64,000 bases of DNA, from positions 117,201 through 181,200 of the forward strand of contig JABTUM010000001.1 in the NCBI GenBank assembly GCA_015075375.1. The letters are read 5' to 3'. Below the pieces are notes generated by a model. It ran no database searches. It was given only the letters and a program-made list of their open reading frames with translations, and was not told the DNA's origin. The DNA comes from Planctomycetota bacterium (lineage in GTDB: Bacteria > Planctomycetota > SZUA-567 > H5-PLA8). Positions 23,810-57,507 of the stretch are shown here, piece after piece. The position numbers and the translations under genes are program-made. Numbering within the stretch: position 1 is the stretch's first letter; each line of letters starts with the position of its first letter.

Positions 23810-23819
23810 GCCCTGAATC

Positions 23820-24512: not shown

Positions 24513-24552
24513 TAGATTCTCCTGAATCGTTCCATTAGGGCACCCGTCGCTC

Positions 24553-25653: not shown

Positions 25654-25684
25654 CCCGGGATCCCGGCGCGTCCCGATTCGTCCA

Positions 25685-26992: not shown

Positions 26993-27009
26993 ACCGCTGT
27001 TCCTTGCCG

Positions 27010-28182: not shown

Positions 28183-28206
28183 GCCGCCAGCCTCCCAAGG
28201 CCGCGC

Positions 28207-28497
28207 CTAGACGCGCGCGCCGCCCGCCGTAATCTCCGGCTGCAGACGCAACACATCTCCTTCACGGATGCCGGCCTGGGTCAGCGTCTCCTCATCGAGC
28301 AACTGCCGCCCGCTGGCTTTATGGTGAAACTTGTAACTCATCAACTGTCCGTCCGGACTGTGGCGCGGAAGGTTCATACGATCCACCAGCAGCACGATGA
28401 TGCGATTGACCGACGCTTGGCCCGGCAGGCTGACCACGGCCTTCTTGTTGCCGGTCGCGTCCCAGACTTCCACACTGATGTTGCCTGCATCGCTCAC
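28207..28497 (-). CDS. ubiquitin-like beta-grasp protein ending in GG followed by a 3-residue tail (precursor-like)
   Basis: The 96-aa protein ends ..DVLRLQPEITAGG-ARV-stop. Its length and hydrophobic periodicity (ISVEVWDATGNKKAVVSL..) fit a beta-grasp fold. It lies immediately upstream of the E1. Its start ATG overlaps the stop of the previous gene (ATGA). Confidence 0.65.
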   Translation of the reverse strand: MSDAGNISVEVWDATGNKKAVVSLPGQASVNRIIVLLVDRMNLPRHSPDGQLMSYKFHHKASGRQLLDEETLTQAGIREGDVLRLQPEITAGGARV

Positions 28498-29537: not shown

Positions 29538-29898
29538 TCGCCGCCGTCCTGTATGGAATCCGTTCAAGCACTATAAAATTTGTGTGCGGCCATGCTATAG
29601 GACGTATAGGTAGTAGCAAGAGCATCCGACTTCACATGTAAGCAAAGCACCGTTTGCATCCAGCCTCGACTGCACACGTGAAGGCTTGCCGCAGCTTGAA
29701 GAAGTAGGTCCCGAATCAAGCCGTCGGCACAGCTCGCAAAATTATTATGGGATTGTCTCGCCCGCCGCGACAAGTATCTGCCTTTCGAACCGATTCGCGC
29801 ACGCAAGGCCCGCAGACGGTCATTTTCGCGCGTGAGCCCTTTCCTGTTTTTCAGGATGTGATAGGTTTCCGGAATCAAAAATTAAAAGGAGTTCCCTT

Positions 29899-41599: not shown

Positions 41600-44500
41600 T
41601 CAAGGTTTCCAGGACGTTCCGGCCCGCCTTAGCCGTACGCGTTGTTCGCCGCCGGATGAGTCTGCTTCGATGCCGATAAGGAATTCGCTAACGACTCGTG
41701 GATCGCTGCGCGAATCGAGTACCGGAGCGATCCCAAAGCTGCCTGTGCCGGGTGTAGCAGGGAGCCAATTTGTAATAATCGTGAGCGTGGCGCGTCCGGC
41801 ATCCCATCGCAAGCTCGATACACCGGTCAGCGCCACGGTCTTGGGCCGCAGGTATTGTTGCAAACCTTCGCCAAGAATCACGAAACCCGTTGAGCCGACC
41901 GATCCGTCACCCACATCTTCTTCGTACTGACCCAGCCGAAGCGCCGCGCCGCCCGCACCCGCCGGATTAAATGGAGCACCGGCCATCGGCACGAACTGAA
42001 CCGTCGCCTGAACCCGCTGCTCCAAAACACCTTTTGAGGATCGTTGCGAAACGGCAGCCTTGGTTACGAAGAAAAGCCCGCCCGGAATCGGATGCTCGGG
42101 ACGAGCCAGGCGGAAAATTCCCTTACCCGAGGAGCCTACGCGTGAGCACGTGTATCGCGTGCCCAACAGCGCCAAACTCGACCAGCCTCCCGTGCCGCCA
42201 ATGCGCAGTGCTACCGGCACCATCACCAGTCGGTTCGAGATTCCCGCGGCATTCTCGGCACCCAATGCGTCAAGGCTCTCGGCCAAGTCTATGCCGCTAA
42301 GCGCCACACTCACCGCGCCCGTTTTCGGGCTGTACGTGACCTTTAGGTTCGGAATCGCTCCACGCGGCGACTGCCAGACGACCGAAGTGGATGACGATGA
42401 ACTGGGAGACGCCAGCGAAGCACTTGCCCCTCCTACGTCAACCTCGACCTGTTTCCCGGAAAGTTGCTCCGGATTCAGCCCAGCATCCAGCAAAGATTGG
42501 GCGTTAACCTTTCCGCTTAACGTGAACGAGTCCACATACGGGTGCGCGATCGTCTTCTTACCGAAGTTCAGCGTGTACTTCGTCTGGCTCACGAGCAACC
42601 CCGTGTGTTTGATCAGTCCCGTCACCTCCACGAACAGTTCCAACACGTCTTGCCCGCCCTCTTCGTCCGTCACCACCACCGTGACTCGGTACACCCCCGG
42701 CGCGGCGTAGATATGTTCGGGGTTCGGTTCCGTGGAAGTCTGCCCGTCTCCAAAGTCCCATAGCCAGGTGTGCGAATCGCCTGCGTCGGCGTCGGCCACT
42801 TCGGCAACGAAAGCAAACGGATCGCCGGGATCGGTGCCGAAGGGGCCGTCCGAGCCACCCATTACGGTCAGTTTCGGTAAGTCGTTCACGTTCCCCACGG
42901 TGATCGTGACCGCGGTGACGTTCGATTCCGCCCCCAGGGCGTCCACGGCGCGATACGTGAACCCATCGGATCCTTGGTAATCAGTGGCCGGCGTGTACGC
43001 AAAGGTGCCGTCCTCGTTCAGCGTAAAGGCCGCCGCGTGCGCGGGACTATCCACAAGCTCAGCGGTAATCGGCGTATTCGATTCGCCCGGCGCGCCGCCG
43101 TGCGCGTCGCTGTCGTTAGCGAGCACGGAAGTTCCTGTCAGCGCCGTGTCTTCACTCGTGCCATATAGGTCTGCCAACGTGACGGGCGCATCGTTGATTC
43201 CGTTGACGGTGAGCGTCACTATCGTATCGCTCGATGCCGAACCCAGCGCATCTACAGCGCGGTAACTGAAAACATCGGAGCCGTTGTACTCTGCGGCCGG
43301 CGTGTAGGTGAAGGTGCCATCCTCATTCAAGGTGAAGGCGGCCGCGTGCACGGGGCCATCCACAAGCTCAGCCGTAAGCGGCGTATTCGACTCGCCCGGC
43401 GCGCCGCCGTGCGCGTCGCTGTCGTTGGCGAGCACCGAACTTCCAGTCAGTAAGGTGTCCTCATTCGTGGTGTATGCGTCCGCTACGGTCACAGGAGAGT
43501 CGTTCAAACTCCCCACCGTGATCGTGACCGCGGTGACGTTCGATTCCGCCCCCAGGGCGTCCACGGCGCGATAGGTGAACCCATCGGAACCTTGGTAATC
43601 GGTGGCCGGCGTGTACGCAAAGGTGCCGTCCTCGTTCAGCGTAAAGGCCGCCGCGTGCGCGGGGCCATCCACAAGCTCAGCGGTAATCGGCGTATTCGAT
43701 TCGCCCGGTGCGCCGCCGTGCGCGTCGCTGTCGTTAGCGAGCACGGAGGTTCCAGTCAGCGCCGTGTCTTCATCCGTCGCGTAAGAGTCGGCGGTTGTGG
43801 CTGGCGCGCGATTGAGTTCGAAATCGAATTCCGCGTGCCCGCCCGCGTCGCCGTCCCCAGTCGGGAACGAATCGCCCCCACCGGAGTTTTCGCCGTCCAG
43901 CGCGTTACCGTCTAAGTCCTTCAGGCCTCCAGAAAGCAGGCGCAGACGGTACTTCCCCCGCGCCCATACGGTTGGGTTAAAGGTCGCACGTATGCGTTGT
44001 GGCGTTTCAAGGCTCAACGTTTCCAGGGGCACTGCGACGTCGTCGGCCGTGCCTAGCGCCTCGTCGTCGCCCGCGTACTGCAGCAGGATGCTCTCCGCGA
44101 TCGCACTATCCGCATCCAACGGTTCATCGAACTCAGCCACGACCTCCTGGGGCGGCGCGCCGAGCGGCCCCGGCGCCGGCAGCAGCGAGAGCACGCGCGG
44201 AGCCGGCGCAGCCACAGTAAAATCGGCCACAAAATCGCCGCCTTCTTCTCCGTCGCCCGATGGAAGACCGGAACCAAGATTGAATTCGCCATCGAGTGCG
44301 TAGCCCGACTCGCCGTAGATACTGTGGCTAGCTTCCACGATTTCCATCGAGGTGCTGGCCCCCGGCGTGTAGCCTTCCAAAAGCTCGATCGTATGGGTCC
44401 CAACGAACAGCCAGTCTAGATCCACTTGGCAGACCAGTCCCGTCGGCGTTAGCGTCAGCGTTCCCGTAGAAAAGATCCCCGGGCTCACGCGCACGCCAAA

Positions 44501-47500
44501 GCGCGCCGGAACGGATGAGGTTGCTCCCGTTCCGGACCACGTGGGAAGATGGGCGCCGGCGATGACGAGTTCTATGACGCTGCCTTTTGCGGCCGCGCGT
44601 GGCACCGCCGCATGCAGCACCGGAGGGGGCGTCACTTCGAACCCGCCGGGTAATAATGCTTCCACTCCGTCAGGATTGATCAGCACCACGTCCCATGTCC
44701 CGGGAAAGCACCCGGCGAGATTCAGATCGAATTCCAGGCTGCCCGCCCCGATTAGCCGTTCGTTCGTCGCGGCGATCTTTGGTTGTCCTTCCATCCTCAA
44801 CTCGACCTGCGGGGGTATGCGCTTCACATATTCGCAAACGTACGGGCGCGAAGAAGCGGTAGTGTCTTTCCAGGACAGCCCATGGGCGTAGGCGACATAT
44901 TGTTCGGATGTGCTGTTCGGCTCTCCATCGGCCCACGCCGTGTATCCGACTGCTTCCCCATTATCCCACACGTTCGTTTCGGTTGCCGTCGGGTCGTTCA
45001 GCCCGATCCATCCGTTGGCACGCCCGTTTAGCCGCCAAACAAACTCATTCTCGGCCGCGTCGCCCAGCGTGACCAAGTGGCCGCCTTGGCTTGCACACTG
45101 CGACCGCGCGCTCGTCCAGGAAACGCCCTCCTTGATGTAACGGTAATACCTTCCAGCATAGGGAACCGCGCCCGCCGTATACGCAATACGGCCTTCCTGG
45201 AAGCCCGTCCCTGAAAGCACGATTTTGTCTGGACTACTGCCCGTCCACGATCCGCTCAAATCCACGCCAATCACTGTCGGCGTGGAAAGCGCCGAAGTCA
45301 CACTGAACTGAAACGCGGCGGACGCCGGTAGGGCATTGCCGAATCGGTCGCGTGCGGACGGAGTCTGGATCGTCACGGTGTACGTCGCGCCTGAATCCCA
45401 TAAGCCTGCGGGCGTGAACGTCAGCGTTCGATGATCCGACCAGACCCAGGTTCCCGATACCGTGCCACCGGTGATGCTGGCCACGTCTCCCGCCGCGACA
45501 CTCGTGTCCATCGGTTCGCTGAAGGAGACTATCAGATCCTGCCAACGAGGCGCATGACCGGGTGAGTCCCCGCAATAGAAGGATTCGACGCTCGGGGGGA
45601 GCGGATCTTGAAGCATGAAGCGCAAGTCCGTCATGTCCGTGCCGTCAGGGTTGGCGAATGCGAGGCTGAAGCGGTCCCCTCCCGTATCTTCATGGTGTTT
45701 GAGGAGGACTGAGTGCCAACCGGCCGCGAGAGGAATAACCGTATCGAGATCGCCCTGCGCGGAAAGAGGGTTGGAGTTCTGATCCACGAAAATCTGCAAC
45801 TCCCGGTCCGCATGCGCCAGGACGCGTACATCGCGGGCAGTGGGCGCGTACAGATAGAGCGCGGCATAGCCGACATAGTTATCGCCGAGGTCTTCGTGCC
45901 AATCCCCGTCGTCGTCGGCATCGGTCAGGTCAGTCCAGACCATCTGCGTAGTCGACGGTAAGCCGCGCATGGGGTAGTGCTGTCCGACGCTGGGCTGGTG
46001 GCGCTCCTCCGCGACTTCGCCCGAATAGATCATGTAGTCCCAAAGGATGTCCACGCCATCGGCGGGCGAACCGGTCATACGTCCGGTGCTTGGGCCCAGA
46101 TGCAGCAGGCGCTTTACCTTGCCCGCCGGGAGAGGGAAACCGTTCACGTTCAGCGTCACCGTGGCGATGGCGCTGTCGCCGTCGGAATCGCGCGCCACGT
46201 ACGTGAATGCGTCGGGGCCTTCGTATCCAGGCTCGGGCGTGTACGTAAAGGAGCCGTCAGGGCGTAGATCTAGCGTCCCGTGCGCGGGATCGCTCTGCTT
46301 AACGGCCTCGATGGGCCCGCCGTTGAAATCATCGTCGTTAGCTAGCACACCGCGGTACGAAGCGATCTCGTGGACCGGCGCGCCGGGCAAGTCGTAACGG
46401 TCGTTCTGAGTTACCGGCGGCGGATGAGCCAGATTAAGGATTTCCAGCGCGCTCAGCGCCCGCCCATACAAACGCGCATCGTCTATCCGTCCGGGCGTGC
46501 GGTTGGTTGCCGTACTGGTGCCTCCAATGAAGACGTTGTCGCTGCCGTACTCCAGCAAGCCGAAAAGGTGCGTTGCCTTGGCGCGCTCCTGGCCGTCTAC
46601 GTAGAGGATTGCGGCGCCCGATTCGGAATCGTATGTCGCGGCGAAGTGATGCCATTCGTTCAGATAGGCCGCGTTGAGCTGCGTATCGAACACGTATATA
46701 TCGGGCGCATTGACGCGATCGATTCGGAATTGGAGACGCCCGTCAGCGTGGCTCCAGCGCAGGAACGGACCAAGCGAGGATGAGCCGTTGCGCATCAGAT
46801 CCGAATGCTGTCCACTGCCGCTACGAGTCTGCGTCATACGCGCCCACAACGCGAAGGTGATCGCGTTGGCGGGTTTCAAACTGGGCGTGCTAAAGACCTG
46901 TACGTAGCCTAAGGTGTCCGGATAACTGGCTGCGAAACCCTCTGGGCTGGGCCCCCAGGTCGCACCGCTGGAAAGGATTGCCGTTCGACCCTTGCCCGAA
47001 CTGTCAGCCGACGATGAGCCAACACCCTCATTGAACTTCCAATGGCCCAGCGTATAGGTGTTTCCCGCCGGTGCGACGACGATCCGGACCGTGACTGCCT
47101 CCGAATACAAGCCTCCCGCCAGCACGCGGTAGGTGAAGGAGTCCTCGCCCGTGAAAAGGGCATGGGGCGTGTACTGCAGCGAGCCGTCGGCGTTCAGCGT
47201 CACGCTGCCGTTCGTGGGATCGCTCAACTTCTCGGCGTTCAGTTCGTCGCCGTTGACGTCCAAGTCGTTGACCAACACCCCGGGCGCCGGCTGGTTGAGC
47301 GGCATGTCTCGAGCCGTATACAACACGTCATTCTTGGCCATCGGCCCGACAGGCGCGAAGTCCGCTCTCAGATCCTCTTCGTTGATGGTACGGCCGTAGA
47401 TGCGTATATCGTCAAGTTGGCAGTGCGGCGGAAATACGGCGCTGCCGAATTGCGTGATGTGCGGCAGAGATGACCCGCTACCGGAGGTAAGAGCGGAATG

Positions 47501-48892
47501 GTAGCGGCCATTAATATAAAGCCGGTAGGGCCCCAAGCCCGGGTTGACAATCGCGATATGGACCCACTTATTTAGTGGCACCGTGTAATTGAAATAGTTC
47601 TTGATGTCGGCGTTTAGGTAGTCGGAAATGTACAGCTTACCCAGATCGTTCACGCCGATGCTCTGAAAATTCGGCGAAGAGGTGAAGTTCCCGAATGTCT
47701 GCTCGACCGAAATCTCGGCCAAGCGGTTGACCCAAAAGCTCACGGCTTGAGGCTGCGCGATCTCGCGCTCCAGCGTCACGACACGATGGGCGGCATCCAA
47801 CTGCAAAGCACCGGCAGCGATGCCGGGTATCCAGGCCGTATCGTCGGAAAGCGTGCCGGGATTGGGCAACGCGCCTAAGTCCGCGACCGCCGTACCCGTC
47901 ATCTCGTCGAACGGGTAATGCGATATCTGCCCGCCCAGGATCAGATAAACCGTCGCGGGTGCCGTAGTAAACGTGCCATCGCTGGCCGAGTAAGTGAACG
48001 AATCCAGTCCCCGATAGCCTCCGAAAGGCGTATACGAAAATTGACCGTTGGAGTTAACGCTCAGCGTACCGTGTTGCGGATCGCTCTCCTTTTGAGCCGT
48101 AATCGCGTCGCCGTTGGGATCGTACGCTCGATTGAGCACCCCGGGCAAAGTGGCCTGGAAGACCTCCTCGGAAGGCACCGAGAAATATCGATCCTTGATA
48201 ATCTGCGGCGGGAGCGGAGGAATCAGGTCCGCGACTTCCGTGCTGCCGAGCGCGCGGCTGTACAGCCGGAAGTCGTCGAGCGTACCTTTCAGAGTTCCTT
48301 CGCCGCCGCCGCCCAGATTCTGAATACTCAGGGCCATGCTTTTGCTCAGAGTGCTCTTAAGAGAACCGTCCACGTATAGCTGCGTAGTACTCCCGTTGCA
48401 GACGAATGCCAGATGCACCCATCTCCCGTCGATTGGCGCCGAATAAACGAAGCTGGAGAGAAAGTCGCCGGCGGTGCCGGTCGTACGCGTGATCCCGACA
48501 TTCATGTTCCAAGAAGGCCACTGCTCCAGCAGAATCTCGGAGGTAGGCGAGTAGACGATCTTGCTGTTCGAACCACCGCTGAATTCGCGACGCACCCACA
48601 CCGCCGCCGTCCACGGCGCAGGGATTTCCGGCACGTTCAAGCTCACGTGGTCGTCCACGCCGTCGAACTTCAGCCCGCCGCCCAAGAGGCCGGGCACCCA
48701 TTGCGGATTCTGAACCAAAGTCCCGTGGTAGGCGTTGGCGCTCTCGTCGAAGGCCGTCGGGCCGGACCCTTCGTCGAAGGTCAGGTGGACAACGAGATCG
48801 TCCTGCGCGGAAGCTGGAATACAGGCGAAACAGATGCAGGCCAGCAGCGCCAACCGCTGGAGCCATCCGTTTTCGATACCGTTTGCTTGCAT
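41600..48892 (-). CDS. giant secreted adhesin-like protein (2430 aa) with LamG/concanavalin-like, C-type lectin, PKD and tandem cadherin/Ig-like repeat domains
   Basis: A signal peptide MQANGIENGWLQRLALLACICFACIPASA is present. LamG-like regions (LDDFRLYSRAL, LDDIRIYGR) are interspersed. The C-type lectin segment is WTSARSQCASQGGHLVTLGDAAENEFV..WIGLND..YVCEY. The PKD segment is WDFGDGQTSTEPNPEHIYAAPGVYRVTVVVTDEEGG. Three to four near-identical roughly 100-aa repeats (TADSYATDEDTALTGTSVLANDSDAHGGAPGESNTPITAELVDGP..) also occur. Confidence 0.8.
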   Translation of the reverse strand: MQANGIENGWLQRLALLACICFACIPASAQDDLVVHLTFDEGSGPTAFDESANAYHGTLVQNPQWVPGLLGGGLKFDGVDDHVSLNVPEIPAPWTAAVWVRREFSGGSNSKIVYSPTSEILLEQWPSWNMNVGITRTTGTAGDFLSSFVYSAPIDGRWVHLAFVCNGSTTQLYVDGSLKSTLSKSMALSIQNLGGGGEGTLKGTLDDFRLYSRALGSTEVADLIPPLPPQIIKDRYFSVPSEEVFQATLPGVLNRAYDPNGDAITAQKESDPQHGTLSVNSNGQFSYTPFGGYRGLDSFTYSASDGTFTTAPATVYLILGGQISHYPFDEMTGTAVADLGALPNPGTLSDDTAWIPGIAAGALQLDAAHRVVTLEREIAQPQAVSFWVNRLAEISVEQTFGNFTSSPNFQSIGVNDLGKLYISDYLNADIKNYFNYTVPLNKWVHIAIVNPGLGPYRLYINGRYHSALTSGSGSSLPHITQFGSAVFPPHCQLDDIRIYGRTINEEDLRADFAPVGPMAKNDVLYTARDMPLNQPAPGVLVNDLDVNGDELNAEKLSDPTNGSVTLNADGSLQYTPHALFTGEDSFTYRVLAGGLYSEAVTVRIVVAPAGNTYTLGHWKFNEGVGSSSADSSGKGRTAILSSGATWGPSPEGFAASYPDTLGYVQVFSTPSLKPANAITFALWARMTQTRSGSGQHSDLMRNGSSSLGPFLRWSHADGRLQFRIDRVNAPDIYVFDTQLNAAYLNEWHHFAATYDSESGAAILYVDGQERAKATHLFGLLEYGSDNVFIGGTSTATNRTPGRIDDARLYGRALSALEILNLAHPPPVTQNDRYDLPGAPVHEIASYRGVLANDDDFNGGPIEAVKQSDPAHGTLDLRPDGSFTYTPEPGYEGPDAFTYVARDSDGDSAIATVTLNVNGFPLPAGKVKRLLHLGPSTGRMTGSPADGVDILWDYMIYSGEVAEERHQPSVGQHYPMRGLPSTTQMVWTDLTDADDDGDWHEDLGDNYVGYAALYLYAPTARDVRVLAHADRELQIFVDQNSNPLSAQGDLDTVIPLAAGWHSVLLKHHEDTGGDRFSLAFANPDGTDMTDLRFMLQDPLPPSVESFYCGDSPGHAPRWQDLIVSFSEPMDTSVAAGDVASITGGTVSGTWVWSDHRTLTFTPAGLWDSGATYTVTIQTPSARDRFGNALPASAAFQFSVTSALSTPTVIGVDLSGSWTGSSPDKIVLSGTGFQEGRIAYTAGAVPYAGRYYRYIKEGVSWTSARSQCASQGGHLVTLGDAAENEFVWRLNGRANGWIGLNDPTATETNVWDNGEAVGYTAWADGEPNSTSEQYVAYAHGLSWKDTTASSRPYVCEYVKRIPPQVELRMEGQPKIAATNERLIGAGSLEFDLNLAGCFPGTWDVVLINPDGVEALLPGGFEVTPPPVLHAAVPRAAAKGSVIELVIAGAHLPTWSGTGATSSVPARFGVRVSPGIFSTGTLTLTPTGLVCQVDLDWLFVGTHTIELLEGYTPGASTSMEIVEASHSIYGESGYALDGEFNLGSGLPSGDGEEGGDFVADFTVAAPAPRVLSLLPAPGPLGAPPQEVVAEFDEPLDADSAIAESILLQYAGDDEALGTADDVAVPLETLSLETPQRIRATFNPTVWARGKYRLRLLSGGLKDLDGNALDGENSGGGDSFPTGDGDAGGHAEFDFELNRAPATTADSYATDEDTALTGTSVLANDSDAHGGAPGESNTPITAELVDGPAHAAAFTLNEDGTFAYTPATDYQGSDGFTYRAVDALGAESNVTAVTITVGSLNDSPVTVADAYTTNEDTLLTGSSVLANDSDAHGGAPGESNTPLTAELVDGPVHAAAFTLNEDGTFTYTPAAEYNGSDVFSYRAVDALGSASSDTIVTLTVNGINDAPVTLADLYGTSEDTALTGTSVLANDSDAHGGAPGESNTPITAELVDSPAHAAAFTLNEDGTFAYTPATDYQGSDGFTYRAVDALGAESNVTAVTITVGNVNDLPKLTVMGGSDGPFGTDPGDPFAFVAEVADADAGDSHTWLWDFGDGQTSTEPNPEHIYAAPGVYRVTVVVTDEEGGQDVLELFVEVTGLIKHTGLLVSQTKYTLNFGKKTIAHPYVDSFTLSGKVNAQSLLDAGLNPEQLSGKQVEVDVGGASASLASPSSSSSTSVVWQSPRGAIPNLKVTYSPKTGAVSVALSGIDLAESLDALGAENAAGISNRLVMVPVALRIGGTGGWSSLALLGTRYTCSRVGSSGKGIFRLARPEHPIPGGLFFVTKAAVSQRSSKGVLEQRVQATVQFVPMAGAPFNPAGAGGAALRLGQYEEDVGDGSVGSTGFVILGEGLQQYLRPKTVALTGVSSLRWDAGRATLTIITNWLPATPGTGSFGIAPVLDSRSDPRVVSEFLIGIEADSSGGEQRVRLRRAGTSWKP
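42870..43810. repeat. roughly 300-bp near-identical tandem DNA repeats (3-4 copies) inside the adhesin gene
   Basis: The same protein block appears in overlapping plus-strand ORFs 42984.., 43308.. and 43592... The minus-strand product shows the repeats ..VLANDSDAHGGAPGESNTP.TAELVD.P.HAAAFTLNEDGTF.YTPA.. Confidence 0.7.
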
Positions 48893-48937: not shown

Positions 48938-49909
48938 CTAGTAATGCCCGTCTCCGCTGCTGGTGCCGCCGCCGCCGCTGGTGCTGGTGCTGGTAGTGGT
49001 ACTGGTACTGGCGCTGGAATTGGTGCTGGAACTGGTGTTCGTGCTGCTGCCAACTCCTGAGGTAGTCGCCGTAGTCGAACCTTGCCCCGTGCTGGTGCTG
49101 CTGGTTGACGCCGTGGCCGTGCTGGAAGCCGTGGAACTTGCGCCTGTACCGGCCGTCGAGGATGTAGAAGTTGAACTCGCATTCGAAGTCGCGCTCGTGG
49201 ACGCCGTGCCCGTGGACGACGTGCTGCTGTTCGAACTATTACTGCTTGTGGAGTTGGCCGTGCTTGCGGCGGTCGTGCTCATGCTCCCTGAAGTAGTGGT
49301 AGAAGCCGAAGTACTTCCACCAGTTGAGCTGCTCGTACTTGAAGTTGAAGTCGAAGGATCGGACTCCCTACCCAGCAGGTAAACCCGATACTTGTCATTG
49401 GGTAGCTTCTTGCCCGCCAAATCAACGCGTGCAGTCGTCGAACTCGTTAATGTTACCGAAGTGGGTACCACGGGTACTTCGTTCCCCTCCCCAAAGCTCC
49501 CATCGCCGCCACTGCGTACCAAAAGCACCGTTTGAGTATTCACGCTGGCAGCCAGGACCGGCTCGCTGAACGTCACAATCAGTTCCGCGGGCACACCGTC
49601 AACCGTACTGCCTGGCGCAGGCGATACGGAGATGACACGAGGTGGAGCCTGCTCGGGCATGCCCGAAGTGGAGGCCGTCGCCGTGCTGGCCGTTGAAGTG
49701 GAGTTGCTTACGGGCTGCGGCCCCGGCACGTACGAACGCACCGTAGGCGGCGCGCCATCGGCCTGGACCCAGGAAGTCGTCAGCCCCATCAGCAGCACAA
49801 GCACCACCAGGAACCCAGCAATAACCAGCAATTCGATCATGCCGTGCGGAGTGGCGGAAGCGCTGCCGTTCGTGCAATTTCTTGGAGGCATGAAATGGAA
49901 ATTTCCCAA
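48938..49909 (-). CDS. Ser/Thr-rich low-complexity protein with N-terminal prepilin-like TM segment and Ig-like (Big) domain
   Basis: The segment HGMIELLVIAGFLVVLVLLMG resembles the prepilin N-terminal methylation/TM motif. SVSPAPGSTVDGVPAELIVTFSEPV is Ig-like. The C-terminal roughly 150 aa are almost pure S/T/G/A. The DNA at 48960..49330 consists of GTGCTGGTG-type repeats. Confidence 0.5.
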   Translation of the reverse strand: MGNFHFMPPRNCTNGSASATPHGMIELLVIAGFLVVLVLLMGLTTSWVQADGAPPTVRSYVPGPQPVSNSTSTASTATASTSGMPEQAPPRVISVSPAPGSTVDGVPAELIVTFSEPVLAASVNTQTVLLVRSGGDGSFGEGNEVPVVPTSVTLTSSTTARVDLAGKKLPNDKYRVYLLGRESDPSTSTSSTSSSTGGSTSASTTTSGSMSTTAASTANSTSSNSSNSSTSSTGTASTSATSNASSTSTSSTAGTGASSTASSTATASTSSTSTGQGSTTATTSGVGSSTNTSSSTNSSASTSTTTSTSTSGGGGTSSGDGHY

Positions 49910-50267
49910 GCAGAAAGAGCGTTCAAGGCGTCCAACACGAAGTTAGAAAATTGTATGCTGTAATAGGATAAAATACCAAGGATTTTCGTGATATCCCCTC
50001 CCCCTTTCGAGGGCAGTCATAAGGGCGTAACGTTGCTCATGCACCTGAGCATGGCAACGGCCATCGGTCTTCGATACATGGGTAAGAGAATATGGCGGCA
50101 CCAAGCCGACCCCCGGTTTAGGAATGCCGGGAGCCGTAAGTTGTAAGCCTTTTCGGTCTTGAGGTTTGCGCGTTCGTCGGAAAACTTTGGGCGGCTACTT
50201 GGCCGAAGGCGTTGCGCTGCTTTGCACTGATCTGCACGGACCACGCCAAACCCGATACTCCTTCAAC

Positions 50268-50342
50268 CCTACTCTTCATATTTTTTCTTTGACGGTCCCT
50301 TCACTCTCTGTTCCGCCACGCGATGAGTTTTCACGTAGCACG
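50268..50342. repeat. degenerate copy of the 70-bp 'tail' repeat module at the 3' boundary of cassette ORF 50351..50749
   Basis: CTACTCTTCATATTTTTTCTTTGACGGTCCCTTCACTCTCTGTTCCGCCACGCGATGAGTTTTCACGTAGCACG aligns to the consensus CTATTCTACTTTTTCTTCGACGGCTTCTTCATCCCCTGTTCCGCCACGCGATGAGTTTTTGCGTAGGACG. Confidence 0.65.
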
Positions 50343-50350
50343 CACAGCAG

Positions 50351-50749
50351 CTACACAGGTTTGTCTTCAATTGTAACATCTATAGAGTCAAGCTTGGCCT
50401 TCTGAGCCAACAACTCGGCATGTCCTCGATACATCTCACCAAGGGAAAGCCTGCCTTTAATCCTCGCTTCCAAAAGGAGTTCCTTAATGGAGACACTTTG
50501 TAATCGAGTGAACCCTTTTCGCACCCAATGAACTATCTTTGCTATATCCCCAGACGATTTTGACACGGCATACACTTCCACACGGTCTGCCCCACCAGCC
50601 TCACGTGGAACCTTCATTTCGCGAACGCTTCCAATTTCAATCCCACACTGATTACACTTGCTTATTACTAGCGCCCCTAAATCGGCAACTATGTCCATAG
50701 CACCACCGCATTTAGGACACGGGTTAAGAATTTCCATGTTATTCGCCAA
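50351..50749 (-). CDS. cassette ORF 1: hypothetical protein with N-terminal zinc ribbon (CPKCG..CNQCG)
   Basis: This is a 132-aa ORF in the lower-GC island. It ends 9 bp from a tail-repeat copy. Confidence 0.4.
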   Translation of the reverse strand: MANNMEILNPCPKCGGAMDIVADLGALVISKCNQCGIEIGSVREMKVPREAGGADRVEVYAVSKSSGDIAKIVHWVRKGFTRLQSVSIKELLLEARIKGRLSLGEMYRGHAELLAQKAKLDSIDVTIEDKPV

Positions 50750-50811
50750 TCATATTTCAGGTAAGTGCTTGTAAAGGGGGTGAGACCGAATCCGGTCAAA
50801 AATTTCCCGGT

Positions 50812-51265
50812 ACCACGCAGCAAGCGCCGCGAGATTGCTCCGCGCCTCACCGGCCGCGCACGCGCAAGCCTCCACCCATTCGTCCATCGCCACGGGCGCG
50901 CCCTTGCCCGCAGCCCCGCAGGGGCGACATACTAAAGCGAGGGGCGCGAGCCCCTCGACCCAAGCACCCCTCTCCATCAGGAGCCCTGAAAGGGCGACCT
51001 AAAGCCACCCCGAACCGAAGAACTCCGAGCGCCTCACCGAGATCCTCCGCCGAACAGCCACGAGCGGATGCCGGAGAATGGAGGGCGCGGTAGCCGAACC
51101 GATCCACACATCACGCGCGGCCGATTCCCGCGCTCCCCGTCGTCGCACGCAGCGCTTCGCGCCCCTCCCACCCGCCTGCGTTCGTCTCTGCTATTCTACT
51201 TTTTCTTCGACGGCTTCTTCATCCCCTGTTCCGCCATGCGAAGAGTTTTTGCGTAGGACGGCGGG
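50812..51265. repeat. mosaic repeat unit (B-module + 3' half of A-module + linker + tail)
   Basis: Modules recur at 51580, 52274, 53505, 54403, 55345 and 56934. The unit contains GC hairpins GAGGGGC-gcga-GCCCCTC and GCCCC-tgc-GGGGC. Confidence 0.7.
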
Positions 51266-51271
51266 GCTACG

Positions 51272-51532
51272 CTACTCTGTTGCAAGACCAATCATGTCCG
51301 GCAATTCCTTAACAAAGTTTCTATATGCGTGGTCCTGCGCTTCAGAGGCTATCTGTTCCAGTTCCTTGCGGAGGGCCACTTGATCAGAAGGTTGCAGCGC
51401 AAGGAGGCTTGAAGCAATATTCTCCATGCCGCGTACCGCAGTATCTGGATTTATTTCATCTGGCCCAGAAGACTCAAGCAACAAGATAGCATCGATCAAG
51501 CCGTGAATGAGGGGAAGGTTGTTTTTTATCAA
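51272..51532 (-). CDS. cassette ORF 2: small hypothetical protein (86 aa)
   Basis: This ORF has low GC. Its stop lies 7 bp from the tail-repeat end. Confidence 0.35.
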   Translation of the reverse strand: MIKNNLPLIHGLIDAILLLESSGPDEINPDTAVRGMENIASSLLALQPSDQVALRKELEQIASEAQDHAYRNFVKELPDMIGLATE

Positions 51533-51579
51533 TGTGCGAGCCTCACTTTTATTCCGTTAATGTTATATGTTTGAAGGAA

Positions 51580-51864
51580 GCGGGTAGCCCACACCAATCT
51601 CCGATTTGTGTGGGTGAGGTTGCGAACAAGAGGCACACAGCAGGCCCCACGAAGTCACCTCTTGACACGACTTCCGCCGAACAGCCACGAGCGGATGCTG
51701 GAGGATGGAGGGCGCGGTAGCCGAACCGATCCGCACTTCACGCGCGGCCGATTCCCGCGCTTCGCGCCCCTCCCACCCGCTTGCGTTCGTCTAGACTATT
51801 CTACCTTTTCTTCGGCGGGACCTTCATCCCTGCTCCGCCACGCGATGAGTTTTTGCGGAGGACG
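51580..51864. repeat. repeat unit (A-module + short linker + tail)
   Basis: The unit begins GCGGGTAGCCCACACCAATCTCCGATTTGTGTGGGTGAGG, which contains the hairpin CCCACAC-13nt-GTGTGGG. It ends ..GAGTTTTTGCGGAGGACG. Confidence 0.75.
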
Positions 51865-52163
51865 GGACGACTCTTTGAACGGCGATTAAGGCACCATTCG
51901 CAAACAGCAGCGGTCAATATTAGGAATCCAAGCCTAGTTAGAATATCTAAAATCGCTCTATTTCCCACCCAGTCGTGATGTCGATGTCCAATATACCGAA
52001 GCTCCGGCCAACGAATGATAAATGTGGGCATAAAGAGCCCAAGTTCAATAACGACAAGACAAAGAGTCAGCAAATGCATCTGAAGTAGTGATCTCTTGCC
52101 CACTATCACCATGCCTCCACGACAAGGGCTTCTACGGCATGCGGACAAACCCCATATCTTCAC
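51801..52163 (-). CDS. cassette ORF 3: small hydrophobic hypothetical protein. Its 3' end reads into a frameshifted copy of the tail.
   Basis: The ORF ends ..VLRKNSSRGGAGMKVPPKKR, which is encoded by a variant tail. The true 5' start is probably internal (MVIVGKRS..). Confidence 0.3.
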   Translation of the reverse strand: MKIWGLSACRRSPCRGGMVIVGKRSLLQMHLLTLCLVVIELGLFMPTFIIRWPELRYIGHRHHDWVGNRAILDILTRLGFLILTAAVCEWCLNRRSKSRPVLRKNSSRGGAGMKVPPKKR

Positions 52164-52273
52164 CGCAGCACTTAAGATCTCCTCTCCATTTCTCCTTTTG
52201 TCCCACTGCTTCTAAAACTCCTCACTAGCCTCTTGGGGCCGATTCGCATCAGGAATTGGTGCACCATCTCCGG

Positions 52274-52835
52274 CACCCTTAAAGCGGGTAGCCCGCACAA
52301 ATCTCCGATTTGTGTGGGTGAGCTTGCGAACAAGAGGCACACCGCAGGCCCCACGAAGTCACCTCTTGACACGATTTCCGCCGAACAGCCACGAGCGGAT
52401 GCTGGAGGATGGAGGGCGCGGTAACCGAACCAATCCGCACTTCACGCGCGGCCGATTCCCGCGCCGGGTGCCGCGGAGCAAGCGCCGTGAGCTTGCTCCG
52501 CGCCTCACCTCACCGGCCGCGCACGCTCAAACCTAGCGCCCATCATCCACCGCCACGGGCGCGCCCTTGCCCGCAGCCCCGCAGGGGCGACATACTAAAG
52601 CGAGGGGCGCGAGCCCCTCGACCCAAGCACCCCTTTCCATCAAGAGCCCTGAAAGGGCGACCTAAAGCCACCCCGACCCGAAGAGCACCGAGCGCCTCGC
52701 CGGCCGCGCACGCACAAGCATCCACCCCTTCGTCCACCGCCACGCGCTCGCCCTCTGCCGCCCGCCTACTCTACTTTTTCTTCGGCGGCTTCTTCATCCC
52801 CTGTTCCGCCACGCGAAGACGGTATGCGTAAGACC
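52274..52835. repeat. full-length repeat unit (A + linker + B + tail), about 560 bp
   Basis: This is the longest copy. It shows that the A and B modules found separately elsewhere can be contiguous. Confidence 0.75.
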
Positions 52836-53422
52836 GGTTTGGGCAGGATGCTGACGTTTGCGTCCTCATCAATTGTCATTTGGAATGGCCCCATACCTGT
52901 AAATCTAGACTTAGTTTGCCTAAAAAGTTCACCCGTGAAAATGCCCGCCCCTGAGGTAAAGAACTCGCCTTCGTCTATGTAAATATAGCCATTACAGCAC
53001 TGCGCTATATCCGCAACAACCAGGGGCAATATATTTGCTTCCACGTGAGTTCGACTGGCAAAGCATAGTACGACAATCTCGTAACCAGCCTCAGTCATGG
53101 CCTTCATGATACTCGACCTACTCTCAGGAGGAATGGTATTCCCAAGACCCGCAAATACAGCCTTTATCGCTGACTCTTCAGACTCACAAATATAAAAGTG
53201 AATGCTCTTTAGCCTCGCGTCCTCAAATCCATACACCGCTGTTTTTTCCAGGATTCCATTAGCATCAATTTTTGCATTACGCTTCAGATCAATAAGATCA
53301 AACTTTGGAAGTTCTTTGGAAATAGAACGAGCAAGTTCACAGTCCTTCGACAGAGCATCAATTACGTCTTTAGCGCAAAGTGGCCCACTCCGAGTGGGTA
53401 AGATTGTCAGATCAACGCTCAT
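52766..53422 (-). CDS. cassette ORF 4: hypothetical protein (218 aa). Its last roughly 20 aa (..PSSRGGTGDEEAAEEKVE) are encoded by the tail repeat.
   Basis: The unique body shows no recognisable domain. The C-terminus is in frame with the tail consensus peptide. Confidence 0.45.
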   Translation of the reverse strand: MSVDLTILPTRSGPLCAKDVIDALSKDCELARSISKELPKFDLIDLKRNAKIDANGILEKTAVYGFEDARLKSIHFYICESEESAIKAVFAGLGNTIPPESRSSIMKAMTEAGYEIVVLCFASRTHVEANILPLVVADIAQCCNGYIYIDEGEFFTSGAGIFTGELFRQTKSRFTGMGPFQMTIDEDANVSILPKPVLRIPSSRGGTGDEEAAEEKVE

Positions 53423-53504
53423 GACTCCCCCTGAGCTTACAGTGAGATACTATGGGGCAACTGGCTCTGCTATAAGCACTTCGCCAGTGGGCGTGTGGCC
53501 GGTA

Positions 53505-53842
53505 CCGGGTGCCGCGGAGCAAGCGCCGTGGGCCTGCTCCGCGCCTAACCGACCACCGCCACGGGCGCGCCCTTGCCCGAAGCCCCGCAGGGGCGACATG
53601 CTAAAGCGAGGGGCGCGAGCCCCTCGACCCAAGCACCCCTCTCCATCAAGAGCCCTGAAAGGGCGACCTAAAGCCACCCCGACCCGAAGAACACCGAGCG
53701 CCTCGCCGGCCGCGCACGCGCAAGCCTCCACCCCTTCGTCCCCCGCCACGCGTTCGCCCTCTGCCGCCCGCCTATTCTACTTTTTCTTCGACGGCTCCTT
53801 CATCCCCTGTTCCGCCACGCGATGAGGGTTTGCGCAGGACGG
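53505..53842. repeat. repeat unit (linker + B-module + tail)
   Basis: The sequence matches the 52480..52835 portion of the full unit. Confidence 0.75.
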
Positions 53843-54359
53843 GCTTATCAGTCTCCTTGGCCGGTACACCGGTACAGAATTCAATGCGCTCTTCTAAAAT
53901 ATATAGGTCGTCTCCAGCAGAAAGCCTTTCCGATATGACGGAAACAAATTTGCAGAGGGCTTGGTAGCCGGAGGCTGCCTCCTTTTGCAATATGTCGCGT
54001 CGAATTACCCGCTCTTCAACGGGTATATCCCCAAAAGGCTCATTAATGGAATGTGTACTCCAGGCGAGAATATATGATCCCGGATTAGCAGCTGCGCTTT
54101 TTAGGACATTTCTTAGTTTGGGATTCAATTTATAAAGAGTTGTCCTATGGGAAGTTCCGTTGGGTAGAGACGAAGATTCCCGTTCAATTCGGATTAGCCA
54201 CCCTGTCCCGTCTTCGGGCTCATAAATCGCACAAAGACTATACTTGGATAGTTTGAGGTCACTTAGATTCAATGAGAACCCGGAAGTTCTCCAACTGCCT
54301 ATTCCTGAACGCGCCTCATCCTCAGATAACAGAATTAGATGCTCCGTTGTGGTTATCAT
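53772..54359 (-). CDS. cassette ORF 5: hypothetical protein (195 aa). Its C-terminus (..LRKPSSRGGTGDEGAVEEKVE) is encoded by the tail repeat.
   Basis: The body is unique. It carries the same tail peptide as ORF 52766..53422. Confidence 0.45.
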   Translation of the reverse strand: MITTTEHLILLSEDEARSGIGSWRTSGFSLNLSDLKLSKYSLCAIYEPEDGTGWLIRIERESSSLPNGTSHRTTLYKLNPKLRNVLKSAAANPGSYILAWSTHSINEPFGDIPVEERVIRRDILQKEAASGYQALCKFVSVISERLSAGDDLYILEERIEFCTGVPAKETDKPVLRKPSSRGGTGDEGAVEEKVE

Positions 54360-54402
54360 GGCTCAACCTCAAAAACTTGCATTCCTTTTACATTAATTAG
54401 AC

Positions 54403-54709
54403 GCGGGTAGCCCACCCAAATCCCCGATTTGTGTGGGTGAGCTTGCGAACAAGAGGCACACCGCAGGCCCCACGAAGTCACCCCTTGACACGATTTCCGC
54501 CGAACAGCCACGAGCGGATACTGGAGGATGGACGGCGCGGTAGCCGAACCGATCCGCACTTCACGCGCGGCCGATTCCCGCGCTCCCCGTCTTCGCACGC
54601 CGCGCGTCGCGCCCCTCCCACCCGCTTGCGTTCGTCTCGGCTATTCTACTTTTTCTTCGACGGCTCCTTCATCCCCTGTTCCGCCACGCGATGAGTTTTG
54701 CGTAGGACG
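54403..54709. repeat. repeat unit (A-module + linker + tail)
   Basis: The architecture is the same as the 51580 copy. Confidence 0.75.
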
Positions 54710-54724
54710 CCCCCGCCGCACTTT

Positions 54725-55330
54725 TCAAGCGCCCTTCACATCCCAACCAGGATTGTTACAATACTGGCGGTCTATGCATACTGGCAATTCACTCAACTCC
54801 ATATCGGTCCAGACCACACTAATATTGCATTTATTACCGTTTGGCATTTCGCTCTCAAGTATCCGTCGTCCTCCAATCTCCGGAAAGCGATCCTCAAAGT
54901 AGTCAGGGGGATCGTCGACAACAATGACATGAGCTGCGTTGCAATAACTCGCACACTTCTTAATCATATTCCAGTACTTTCGCTTCCTCGATTCGTTAAG
55001 CTCATGAAACAGCCGTTTCGACCATCCGAACTCCATATACGGATTGGAGTATCCCGTTGCAAAGCCACAGACAAAGAACAACTCAGAATTGCGGCATTCA
55101 ACCAAGAACTGCTCATGCTTCGATAACCGCTTTATTAGATCTGCTTTGATGGGTTGAGCCACTCGAACCTCTTCGCCATGTTCAAGATGACCCAACTCGT
55201 CAATCGGGTTTGCGGGTCGGATTAAATCGTCAAATTCGAGCCCAAAGTCGGCAAGCACGCTAACCGCACCTGCGGGCTTGAGCGCCAGCCTAGGGCCTGG
55301 AAAAAAGAAAGCATAATGCCAGGATGCCAT
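54725..55330 (-). CDS. cassette ORF 6: hypothetical protein (201 aa)
   Basis: This ORF has lower GC. Its stop lies 16 bp from the tail end. Confidence 0.4.
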   Translation of the reverse strand: MASWHYAFFFPGPRLALKPAGAVSVLADFGLEFDDLIRPANPIDELGHLEHGEEVRVAQPIKADLIKRLSKHEQFLVECRNSELFFVCGFATGYSNPYMEFGWSKRLFHELNESRKRKYWNMIKKCASYCNAAHVIVVDDPPDYFEDRFPEIGGRRILESEMPNGNKCNISVVWTDMELSELPVCIDRQYCNNPGWDVKGA

Positions 55331-55344
55331 GATTATCCCTTACT

Positions 55345-55761
55345 CTTACGGAATGGCGGGTGCCGGGACCGGGCGCCACGCAACAAGCGCCGTGGGCTTG
55401 CTCCGCGCCTCACCGGCCGCGCACGCGCAACCCTCCACCTACGCATCCACCGCCACGCGCTCGCCCTTGCCCGCAGCCCCGCAGGGGCGACATACTAAAG
55501 CGAGGGGCGCGAGCCCCTCGACCCAAGCACCCCTCTCCATCAAGAGCCCTGAAAGGGCGACATAAAGCCACCCCGACCCGAAGAACACCGAGCGCCTCAC
55601 CGGCCGCGCACGCGCAAGCCTCCACCCCTTCGTCCACCGCCACGCGCTCGCCCTCTGCCACCCGCCTATTCTACTATTCCTTCGGCGGCTCCTTCATCCC
55701 CAGTTGCGCCACGCGAAGAGTTTTTGCGGAGGACGCACGCGATGAGTTTTTGAGTAGGACG
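55345..55761. repeat. repeat unit (linker + B-module + tail, with a partially duplicated tail end)
   Basis: The sequence ends ..GCGAAGAGTTTTTGCGGAGGACGCACGCGATGAGTTTTTGAGTAGGACG, which is two tandem tail ends. Confidence 0.7.
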
Positions 55762-55764
55762 CGG

Positions 55765-56385
55765 TTACAGACGCCATACTTCCTTGTTACTTCCATTCAG
55801 TACTGAAATTATCTCTGCGCCCTTAATCACCACAAGGAATTTACTTGGCAAGAAGAGAGCACAGAGAACAATGGGCCGCAGCTTTAAGAACTCATATACA
55901 TAAGCAGCCTTCAATTTGTCCGGAGGCGGCTTGACGCCGTTACCTAAAACTGGACCGATATACCAACCAGAATCATGAACCTTGGCATTGGGGACATTTC
56001 TCTCAAGATATATTTCGTCATCCTCAATGCAGCCTGCATCAAATATAACCTTCTCGCTAAACAAGCACTCCGTACCTTCTACGCCACATCGGTTTAGAAC
56101 ATCAACTTGCATACTTAAAATACGGAGGGTTGATGTAACACTCTCGCGATACTCTAAAAACGGGTTTCTATCAAAATCGGGCTCACAAACAACAAAGCCA
56201 AACGAACGCTCATACAGGACAAAGTGTGACCACCCGACTTGAATACGACATCCATCAAAAAGCCCCTTACTAGTTAAAGCAATGTTAGATAGGACGCTAA
56301 ACAACCACTCGACTTGCGCGTCAAGCCCTTCAGCACAGAATAGCCTAACCTCAAACTTCCCATCAATCTTTCTTGCGAAGACCAC
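55765..56385 (-). CDS. cassette ORF 7: hypothetical protein (206 aa)
   Basis: This ORF has lower GC. Its stop abuts the tail end (about 4 bp). Confidence 0.4.
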   Translation of the reverse strand: MVFARKIDGKFEVRLFCAEGLDAQVEWLFSVLSNIALTSKGLFDGCRIQVGWSHFVLYERSFGFVVCEPDFDRNPFLEYRESVTSTLRILSMQVDVLNRCGVEGTECLFSEKVIFDAGCIEDDEIYLERNVPNAKVHDSGWYIGPVLGNGVKPPPDKLKAAYVYEFLKLRPIVLCALFLPSKFLVVIKGAEIISVLNGSNKEVWRL

Positions 56386-56400
56386 GCTAGTCCCCTTTGA

Positions 56401-56452
56401 GGTGTGAGTCTATCCCCAGTTCCGTCACGCGACGAGTTTATGCAGAGGACAG
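56401..56452. repeat. tail-only repeat remnant
   Basis: ..CCCCAGTTCCGTCACGCGACGAGTTTATGCAGAGGACAG aligns to the 3' half of the tail. Confidence 0.55.
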
Positions 56453-56896
56453 TCAGCCCTCTGGACTTCTGACATATTCAGCTACTTTCAGGCCGTCTCT
56501 CTGATAGATTCTCCGCAAGAATGGCACGAAGACTGCACTTTCCTTCGAGTTTATGCGAACAACATATCTCTCAACTTGGGAGCCATAGTCACACGCAATC
56601 CAAACAAGGTCAATGCAACCATCACCTGTCGGAATTTCCTGATCCGGCATCCCTAGTATATCAATTAAACGGCCCTTGCTAATTCCTAAGTACAGCGCAC
56701 CATCCGCAATTAATGCACAAATGTATTCGTCGGTTCCATTTCGAGGAAGGCTAGTTGTCGCAGATCGTAAATCCTTAAGTCGCCAACTGGTGTAGGCTAC
56801 TCGTATGGGACGCAAATAGGTGATGGCTGCAAATGTGCCGGCACAACTCAGCAGAAGTAGCCCGCCTATTAAAGTTTTTCTGAATTGCAGTCGCAT
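56453..56896 (-). CDS. cassette ORF 8: hypothetical secreted/lipoprotein-like protein (147 aa)
   Basis: The N-terminus MRLQFRKTLIGGLLLLSCAGTFAA is a signal peptide. The stop directly abuts the tail remnant. Confidence 0.4.
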   Translation of the reverse strand: MRLQFRKTLIGGLLLLSCAGTFAAITYLRPIRVAYTSWRLKDLRSATTSLPRNGTDEYICALIADGALYLGISKGRLIDILGMPDQEIPTGDGCIDLVWIACDYGSQVERYVVRINSKESAVFVPFLRRIYQRDGLKVAEYVRSPEG

Positions 56897-56933
56897 TACA
56901 CTCTCGAATTATGGAAAGGTTAGATGGACCGCA

Positions 56934-56990
56934 GCGGGTAGCCCACACAAATCCCCGATTTGTGTGGGTGAGCTTGCGAACAAAAGGCGC
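56934..56990. repeat. A-module 5' fragment (hairpin end only)
   Basis: GCGGGTAGCCCACACAAATCCCCGATTTGTGTGGGTGAGCTTGCGAACAA is followed by sequence that diverges from the other copies. Confidence 0.6.
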
Positions 56991-57507
56991 TCACGACGGC
57001 ATCCGCACGGATTCATCCACTGATTTTCCAACTCCCAGCATGCGCCCGCGCCGTCTTCGGCTGCGCTGGAGCGTCCGGTCCAAGGAAGCCGTACCTTCAA
57101 CATCCACCCCACCCCACGCATGCTAGGCACTCACCCCGCGCGCCGAAACTAGAAAACCCCAAACAACCGCACCCACCTACCCACACGCGTAACCGCCCTG
57201 CGTCGCCGAGCGCCGAAGGCCACGGAAGGCCGCGCTTATTTGGCCTCCAAGCCGCCTGCACCCGTTCAGCCCCGCGCGCATAGCGCGCAAAGCGCTAAGC
57301 ACCTGCGTGCAAATATACGCTTTGCAGTAGCGATTTATAGCAGTTTTATGGCAGGATCGAATTTTTGCTCGACGTGCGCGAGGTGGTATAGACCGCCTTT
57401 TTGTTCTTATAACCCCTTAAAACACGTCCGAAATTCCGCCGCACAAGAGCACCACCCGCCACGGCGTTCATGCTTCATTCATGCTATATTTCATGCCGTT
57501 CTGAGCA

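Follow-up and report, generated by a model that had tools for sequence, protein, structure and literature searches.

In integrons, and in the clusters of attC sites that by definition lack an integron integrase (CALINs), after each unrelated foreign open reading frame (ORF) comes a conserved, host-specific element that is roughly as long as attC and into which the ORF can run, ending at the stop codons found there. The rAID-1 arrays of Bacteroidales have a conserved tyrosine recombinase of the XerD family as their first gene and consist of co-oriented small genes, orphan immunity genes among them, with a GC content skewed from that of the host and repetitive intergenic sequences that have been called integron-like (Ross et al., bioRxiv 10.1101/471110). 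Tandem immunity genes with short conserved segments between the members are also found in the orphan immunity arrays of the Vibrio cholerae type VI secretion system (T6SS), which lie downstream of an active effector locus with effector remnants and were built by homologous or homology-facilitated recombination (PMC5361080). Here we describe an array of eight small ORFs in a metagenome-assembled genome (MAG) of a Planctomycetota bacterium, located within a 64,000-nt stretch of contig JABTUM010000001.1 (assembly GCA_015075375.1, positions 117,201 to 181,200; hereafter the window), and a repeat of approximately 70 nt, the tail, that lies directly 3' of each of these ORFs. All coordinates are those of the window, and the array and its tails are on the minus strand. 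The tail is non-coding DNA and probably acts as a 3' boundary module for the cassettes of an integron-like or rAID-like chromosomal array of horizontally acquired low-GC genes, at least one of which is of an immunity type.

The array covers approximately 7 kb (about 50.3–57.0 kb), and its ORFs encode proteins of 86–218 aa that are mutually dissimilar outside the tails. The cassette ORFs have a GC content of 44–49% and a GC content at third codon positions (GC3) of 42–52%, compared with a GC3 of 71–86% in the neighbouring host genes; the spacers between them, at 59–70% GC, are GC-rich and host-like. The array is identical in three assemblies, namely the NCBI MAG (HS116_00635-00655; MBE7461970-74) and two independent assemblies in the European Nucleotide Archive (ENA), and a short Logan contig also matches it. 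Since independent assemblies agree, the array is not an assembly artefact.

Repeat finding and alignment, together with a degenerate core pattern, identified nine copies of the tail between 50272 and 56451 (seven full, one truncated and one partial; Table 1), in essential agreement with the count of nine and the consensus given in an earlier, sequence-only reading of this DNA. The core pattern matched seven times in the window and never in 100 shuffles. The six internal full tails have a mean identity of 87.6%, and the terminal copy, the most diverged, is approximately 76% identical to the rest. The tail consensus has 51% GC and is the A-richest portion of the repeat. All full tails contain a stop codon in every frame, at codons 13, 20–21 and 22 (TGA, TAG/TAA and TAG), as the sequence-only reading had stated. 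Stops in all three frames also occurred in 27% of mononucleotide shuffles of the 69-nt consensus and in approximately 2–3% of random 69-mers from GC-rich host or spacer DNA; they follow from the composition of the tail and are statistically unremarkable in themselves.

Table 1. Positions of the array, its tails, heads, spacers and cassette ORFs, and of the Acido-Lenti-1 motif (window coordinates unless a metagenomic locus is named).
Feature	Position	Strand	Details
Whole array	50351..56896	-	Eight co-oriented ORFs: 56453..56896, 55765..56385, 54725..55330, 53772..54359, 52766..53422, 51801..52163, 51272..51532, 50351..50749
Truncated tail	56412-56451	-	First 39-40 nt kept; ends ..GGGGAT
Partial tail, 26 nt	55736-55761	-	Precedes full copy t55672
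Tail t55672	55666-55735	-	Full; abuts the 26-nt partial tail
Tail t54647	54641-54709	-	1-nt deletion in A run; ORF 54725..55330 ends 17 nt upstream
Tail t53778	53772-53841	-	ORF 53772..54359 reads through it, in the frame also used by 52766..53422
Tail t52772	52766-52835	-	Read through by ORF 52766..53422; provides its last 23 codons and stop
Tail t51801	51796-51864	-	1-nt deletion in GGGG run; ORF 51801..52163 enters the peptide frame and is then shifted out
Tail t51197	51191-51260	-	ORF 51272..51532 ends 13 nt upstream
Terminal tail	50272-50343	-	Most diverged copy; unique DNA follows
First head (last 55 nt of spacer type A)	56939..56993	-	12-bp hairpin CCCACACAAATC-GGG-GATTTGTGTGGG, then CTACCCGC; alone upstream of the first cassette
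Other A heads	54402-54456, 52283-52337, 51579-51633	-	Close type-A spacers
B head hairpin copies	50792-50857, 55355-55420		
Type-A spacer (linker, A body, head)	51533..51795; second copy 54360-54640	-	
Type-B spacer	53423..53771; second copy 55331-55665	-	Two 70-nt sub-repeats, Acido-Lenti-1 motif, head
Composite spacer (B+A)	52164-52765	-	
Hybrid spacer (A/B)	50750-51190	-	
Acido-Lenti-1 (RF01687)	53581..53626, 50912-50957, 52575-52620, 55475-55520	-	Rfam 43.4-45.7 bits; gathering score 37
Cassette ORF, 206 aa	55765..56385	-	Imm33-like domain, E = 3.7e-12
Cassette ORF, 218 aa	52766..53422	-	Uncharacterised family of 170-228 aa, N-terminus MSVDxxILPT..; proteins P0014-P0023
Examples of inverted Acido-Lenti-1 doublets (metagenomes)	L023:11256-11446, L032:1592-1794, L071:6418-6644		

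The junction between cargo and tail is constant on the repeat side, where it is always CGTCCTAC with a sharp 5' edge in all copies, and variable on the cargo side, where it lies up to 31 nt past the stop codon or as far back as inside the 3' end of the ORF. Five of the eight ORFs (56453.., 55765.., 54725.., 51272.. and 50351..) reach their own stop codon before the tail, at distances that, in increasing order, are 3, 10, 13, 17 and 31 nt, and the tail closes the three ORFs that have no stop of their own. Two of these three (52766..53422 and 53772..54359) end in the tail-encoded sequence PVLR(I/K)PSSRGGTGDE(E/G)A(A/V)EEKVE, the acidic extension that the sequence-only reading had correctly assigned to them; the third, 51801..52163, enters the tail in the same frame and leaves it at the 1-nt deletion, which accounts for the frameshifted version described there. 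Because the A-rich tail presents TGA..TAG..TAG in three frames, an ORF that loses its own stop at the junction is closed within 13–22 codons and gains a junk extension, and it is by such read-through that two proteins come to share ..SSRGGTGDEEAxEEKVE.

We examined the tail for coding constraint in the frame of this peptide. The variable columns of the alignment were distributed 11:13:9 over codon positions 1:2:3, and 12 of 37 changes were synonymous, a fraction of 0.32 compared with the 0.25 expected under random change (p = 0.18), with similar results in the other two frames. Substitutions are thus random with respect to the reading frame, and purifying selection on the peptide, the check that the sequence-only reading had proposed, was not borne out. 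The frame itself is not kept in all copies, as 1-nt deletions break it in two of them.

The 218-aa protein encoded by 52766..53422 allowed us to compare a tail-bearing protein with its homologues. Ten distant relatives, nine of them small (170–228 aa), were identified when 1.84 billion representative proteins were scanned in full with HMMER; they form an unannotated family. All of the relatives align from residue 1 of the query to residues 163–197, and the tail is present in none of them. The two longest relatives have a native C-terminus (..ILEDGTEFTV or ..ELPDGSLYII..) where the window protein instead turns to ..ILPKPVLRIPSSRGG.., an alignment that shows that the tail has replaced the native C-terminal part of the gene. 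The AlphaFold2 model of the 218-aa protein has an overall predicted local distance difference test (pLDDT) score of 80.5, with high confidence for residues 1–170 and a pLDDT below 50 for residues 179–218, which include the tail; no match to the model was found in the PDB at E ≤ 0.001. Because five of the eight ORFs stop earlier, two copies carry deletions, codon positions show no bias, homologues lack the tail and the model is of low confidence in this region, we conclude that the tail is non-coding DNA and that its peptide arises by accident, through read-through on two of the eight genes, and is no functional tag. The portable 3' gene end envisaged by the sequence-only reading therefore stands in part: the tail is discrete, marks the 3' end of each unrelated gene and closes three ORFs, but it does so as non-coding DNA that places its peptide on only two of the eight.

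Spacers of two related types separate each tail from the next head, the hairpin-bearing element that precedes the following ORF. Type A, of approximately 190 nt, ends in a 12-bp hairpin, CCCACACAAATC-GGR-GATTTGTGTGGG, followed by CTACCCGC; type B, of approximately 350 nt, contains a 70-nt sub-repeat twice, 187 nt apart, and closes with a 12-7-12 hairpin and, after it, GCACCCGG. The same 70-nt tail precedes both linker/spacer types, and A-type units add 15 bases right after GAATAG. The 10-mer GCAAGCTCAC is significantly common to the A and B heads (p = 0.002). Of the 12-bp head hairpins, those of the first A copy and of one of the four B copies (52472-52502) are the only perfect ones; in the remaining A heads and in one further B head an arm has one uncompensated mismatch, and two B heads have several mismatches, a pattern that suggests neutral decay rather than maintained pairing. 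We also considered heads and tails as terminal inverted repeats, comparing CCTCTTGTTCGC with the reverse complement of GCGGAACAGGGG; the local alignment was no better than those of shuffled sequences (p = 0.5–0.99), and this candidate was rejected as chance.

After the last gene of the array, similarity to the repeat unit ceases precisely with the final base of the tail, and before the first gene the 55-nt head is all that is present; neither flank shows further similarity to the unit (scores 65–100 versus a shuffle maximum of 23–30). Each low-GC segment is bracketed by a head upstream and a tail downstream. A lone head before the first gene and a lone tail after the eighth are better fitted by head-ORF-tail units than by two independently truncated insertions.

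Two junctions within the array are irregular. The partial tail at 55736-55761 mismatches the adjoining full tail at 3 of 25 positions, and so derives from a different tail lineage and not from a fresh slippage duplication. The truncated tail at 56412-56451 runs directly, with no spacer between, into the 26-nt leader that lies 5' of the Imm33-like gene. Both junctions show that tails can break internally, resembling fused integron cassettes; fusion with partial loss of the site, as at 56412, is also a feature of integrons (cf. PMC4670013).

Among the cargo, the 206-aa Imm33-like protein is full length compared with its homologues and stops before the tail. Two homologues (41–43% identity) are encoded by genes that overlap the stop codons of RHS-repeat toxin genes, whose products exceed 4,700 and 6,000 aa and both run off their locus. 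The position immediately downstream of a toxin gene is the classic one for a cognate immunity gene, and at least one of the cassettes is an Rhs-type immunity homologue. Another Imm33-like homologue lies in an island of small ORFs that contains a weak match to the immunity family SUKH_5 and has transposases nearby; no repeats were found around the Imm33-like gene of such an island. For the 195-aa ORF no homologue was found among 5.8 billion proteins, in a search that did not recover the 218-aa protein through the shared tail. The remaining cassette ORFs gave nothing significant in Pfam, NCBIfam or PADLOC. The last cassette (50351-50749, minus strand) encodes a 132-aa protein whose N-terminal zinc ribbon bears a weak resemblance to Lar restriction-alleviation proteins (E = 2.8e-4 in Pfam, under the gathering score; NCBIfam TIGR03655 E = 1.7e-3).

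Of the described systems, the rAID-1 arrays appear to be the closest published analogue. In both, small co-oriented genes, with orphan immunity genes or, here, one Imm33-like candidate among them, have a GC content skewed from that of the host and are separated by repetitive intergenic sequence. In contrast to rAID-1, the present array belongs to a Planctomycete rather than to Bacteroidales, no recombinase was found with it in the window, its inter-gene repeats are long (260–600 nt) with discrete head and tail modules, and only one of its eight genes is recognisably an immunity gene. The T6SS arrays of V. cholerae differ in their setting, as no toxin or secretion locus adjoins the array in the window. 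Its upstream neighbour encodes a TPR protein, which is followed by a terminator-like hairpin. Immediately downstream, also on the minus strand, are a gene for a 323-aa Ser/Thr-rich Big_5 protein (48938-49909) and a giant gene for a 2430-aa LamG/cadherin/Big_9 protein (41600-48892) that contains three 309-nt tandem repeats (42880-43797).

If the tail is the 3' boundary of cassettes, heads and tails would have been the substrates of recombination events by which cassettes were gained, lost and swapped, either through homologous recombination between repeats or through a recombinase encoded elsewhere. The repeats may now be drifting, given their identities of 76–96%, uncompensated hairpin mismatches and indels, and the array may no longer be active.

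Several observations weigh against a boundary role in a cassette array. The uncompensated mismatches in the head hairpins and the near absence of covariation in the tail give no support to selection on the repeats, and the simple head-ORF-tail model leaves the origin of the tail-to-head spacers unexplained. A recognisable function was found for only one of the eight cassettes. A Pfam scan of the larger ORFs of the window identified gyrB, dnaE, feoB, a ubiquitination-like cluster, giant adhesin-like proteins and TPR/PEGA proteins, and among the scanned ORFs of at least 150 aa there was no integrase or recombinase, transposase or HUH enzyme. The tail pattern had no true match in 185,579 species genomes (two chance matches lay inside unrelated coding sequence), in the metagenomes of the Joint Genome Institute (JGI) or in IMG/VR, in scans that require an exact match to a degenerate pattern and so would miss diverged relatives. 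A padded 44-column profile of the tail peptide likewise found nothing among 5.8 billion proteins at E ≤ 10, a search without power, as it did not recover the two carriers of the window itself. Cassette content showed no polymorphism, the ENA and Logan contigs being identical to the window, so that the case for mobility comes from architecture and composition only.

The cluster found in the Pfam scan (20514-29567, minus strand) resembles a bacterial ubiquitination-like system. It includes a ThiF-family E1 (27010-28182), a UQ_con E2-like protein (20977-21888), a Prok-RING protein with a trypsin-like protease (21885-23249), an FHA/YscD-like protein (24553-25653), a DUF2752 protein and a zinc-ribbon protein.

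The main rival to a cassette boundary takes the GC-rich units (tail, spacer and head) as host repeats, like repetitive extragenic palindromes (REPs), bacterial interspersed mosaic elements (BIMEs) or miniature inverted-repeat transposable elements (MITEs), that colonised the gaps of a pre-existing acquired low-GC island, the tail being the left end of the element and sometimes clipping the 3' ends of genes. REP-type elements are short, imperfect GC-rich palindromes of extragenic DNA that cluster, often with alternating orientation, and are dispersed in many copies over a genome that has an associated RAYT transposase. This reading draws on the Acido-Lenti-1 motif, of which one bona fide match lies in each stretch of B-type spacer DNA (n = 4), with the tail outside the motif. 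In Lentisphaera araneosa, Acido-Lenti-1 has a very high copy number, frequently in tandem at a spacing of 69–200 nt, and it occurs as well in Koribacter, Rhodopirellula baltica and Geobacter uraniireducens (Weinberg et al. 2010, PMC2864571, supplement). When we scanned the JGI metagenomes with a pattern for the motif subfamily nearest to the copies in the window, we obtained at least 120 loci (L011-L130), and among the matches listed 18 of 22 adjacent pairs were inverted doublets 133–209 nt apart in which the second hairpin was present in additional inner copies. This layout resembles that of REPs and of REP doublets forming hairpins (REPINs) rather than that of a small RNA gene, which is not reflected in the Rfam annotation. 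The spacers of the array, GC-rich hairpin mosaics just downstream of genes, are assembled much as in BIME clusters; with T for the tail, a and A for A-type and B for B-type modules, they take the forms T-a-A, T-B and T-B-A besides an A/B hybrid. The uncompensated decay of their hairpins and the lack of a recombinase nearby would also be accommodated.

Host repeats of this kind are nevertheless an unlikely source of the array, and its layout weakens the case for them. The repeats are absent from the other 57 kb of the window, and within the array the units are all co-oriented, with exactly one in each gap between genes, where their Acido-Lenti-1 copies occur singly and point the same way instead of forming inverted doublets. 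The tail itself has neither a match to the motif nor a convincing hairpin, and among the 120 metagenomic Acido-Lenti-1 loci listed the tail, A and B modules found no homology beyond the 46-nt motif. Above all, the array ends hold only the ORF-proximal pieces of the unit.

A doubtful but more far-reaching possibility is that the array represents an undescribed cassette system in which head-ORF-tail units, each bounded by a hairpin head of 55 nt and by a tail of 70 nt that has stops in three frames, inserted into Acido-Lenti-1 or REP-like DNA through an enzyme encoded in trans. A tyrosine recombinase or an enzyme of the HUH/RAYT type would be a candidate for recognising the head and tail ends. 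Acido-Lenti-1, an orphan motif of Rfam, would thereby acquire a role in the genome, and the system would amount to an attC-independent integron analogue in Planctomycetota.

The tail might also act at the level of RNA, as a 3' untranslated or intercistronic element (a processing site rich in A, or a structure near the stop codon that tunes the stability or translation of the upstream cistron), which would be compatible with a boundary role. This seems quite improbable to us. Its constant position directly 3' of each ORF would suit such an element, as would a possible 9-bp stem, TCGCGTGGC / GCCGTCGA, with G-U pairs and one compensated pair. In the consensus fold of tail and linker, however, the covariation term is unfavourable (+0.48) and double changes are limited to 2 of 24 pairs. 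In Rfam, nothing matched the tail even at E ≤ 1. Structured RNA across the whole inter-ORF region was rejected in turn, since its folding z-scores (−1.2 and −0.7) were no better than those of shuffles and covariation was unfavourable. Nor does the tail support the terminator proposed in the sequence-only reading, as no terminator-like hairpin followed by a T-run was found within it; the Acido-Lenti-1 hairpin approximately 250 nt downstream is terminator-like in three of four copies, which would suit an RNA-level element.

That the tail is a functional coding module, supplying an acidic C-terminal tag for sorting or degradation together with a terminator, is very improbable, and the proposal of such a tag falls on the evidence that shows the tail to be non-coding. 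Both outcomes that the sequence-only reading had named as refuting it were seen, in that substitutions ignore the frame and no further tail turned up in the collections scanned. Two unrelated proteins do share nearly the same last 23 residues, and all three ORFs that read into the tail use one frame, which has a chance of approximately 1 in 9. A precedent exists in the KLIKK proteases of Tannerella forsythia, unrelated genes with a nearly identical 3' end; that module, found on every member, is a large C-terminal extension ending in an 86-residue domain similar to the classical C-terminal secretion domains of proteins from P. gingivalis and T. forsythia (PMC4404884), and Acido-Lenti-1 has been reported downstream of two of the genes (bioRxiv 10.64898/2026.02.09.704811). 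The tail of the window, in contrast, comprises 23 codons used by two of eight genes with no coding constraint, and a codon-aware pattern for SSRGGTGDEE had no match in IMG/VR. An attC site has complementary R'' (RYYYAAC) and R' (GTTRRRY) boxes, 40–150 nt apart, on either side of an imperfect palindrome. Lastly, a canonical attC site, whole or in part, within a CALIN was suggested by the co-oriented, promoterless-looking foreign ORFs, each followed by a conserved element of attC size, and by a loose likeness of GTCCTAC...GTAGAAT to R''/R' (6/7 positions each), and is very improbable given the lack of any RYYYAAC..GTTRRRY pair with at least 6/7 complementarity on either strand of 49900-57500, a putative R'' triplet that varies (TAC, TCC, TGC, TCT) without compensating change, the lack of a long imperfect palindrome, folding z-scores of −0.7 to −1.2 for the inter-ORF regions, the lack of an intI among the larger ORFs scanned in the window, and the several hundred extra repeat bases between cassettes.

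Had the tail been a universal peptide tag for captured genes, it would have represented a new principle; the evidence points instead to an accident of read-through, which makes the finding on the tail itself of low interest. The non-coding boundary module that we favour belongs to an array that is moderately interesting as an apparently unreported variant of integron-like cassette arrays, with genes of foreign composition, sharp head and tail boundaries, no attC found, no recombinase nearby and, in the spacers, an Rfam motif that has long been an orphan. Arrays of this kind, should they exist elsewhere, would add to the known ways in which bacteria stockpile immunity and accessory genes, and would show that the repeats at cassette boundaries are able to remodel the C-termini of the proteins encoded between them.

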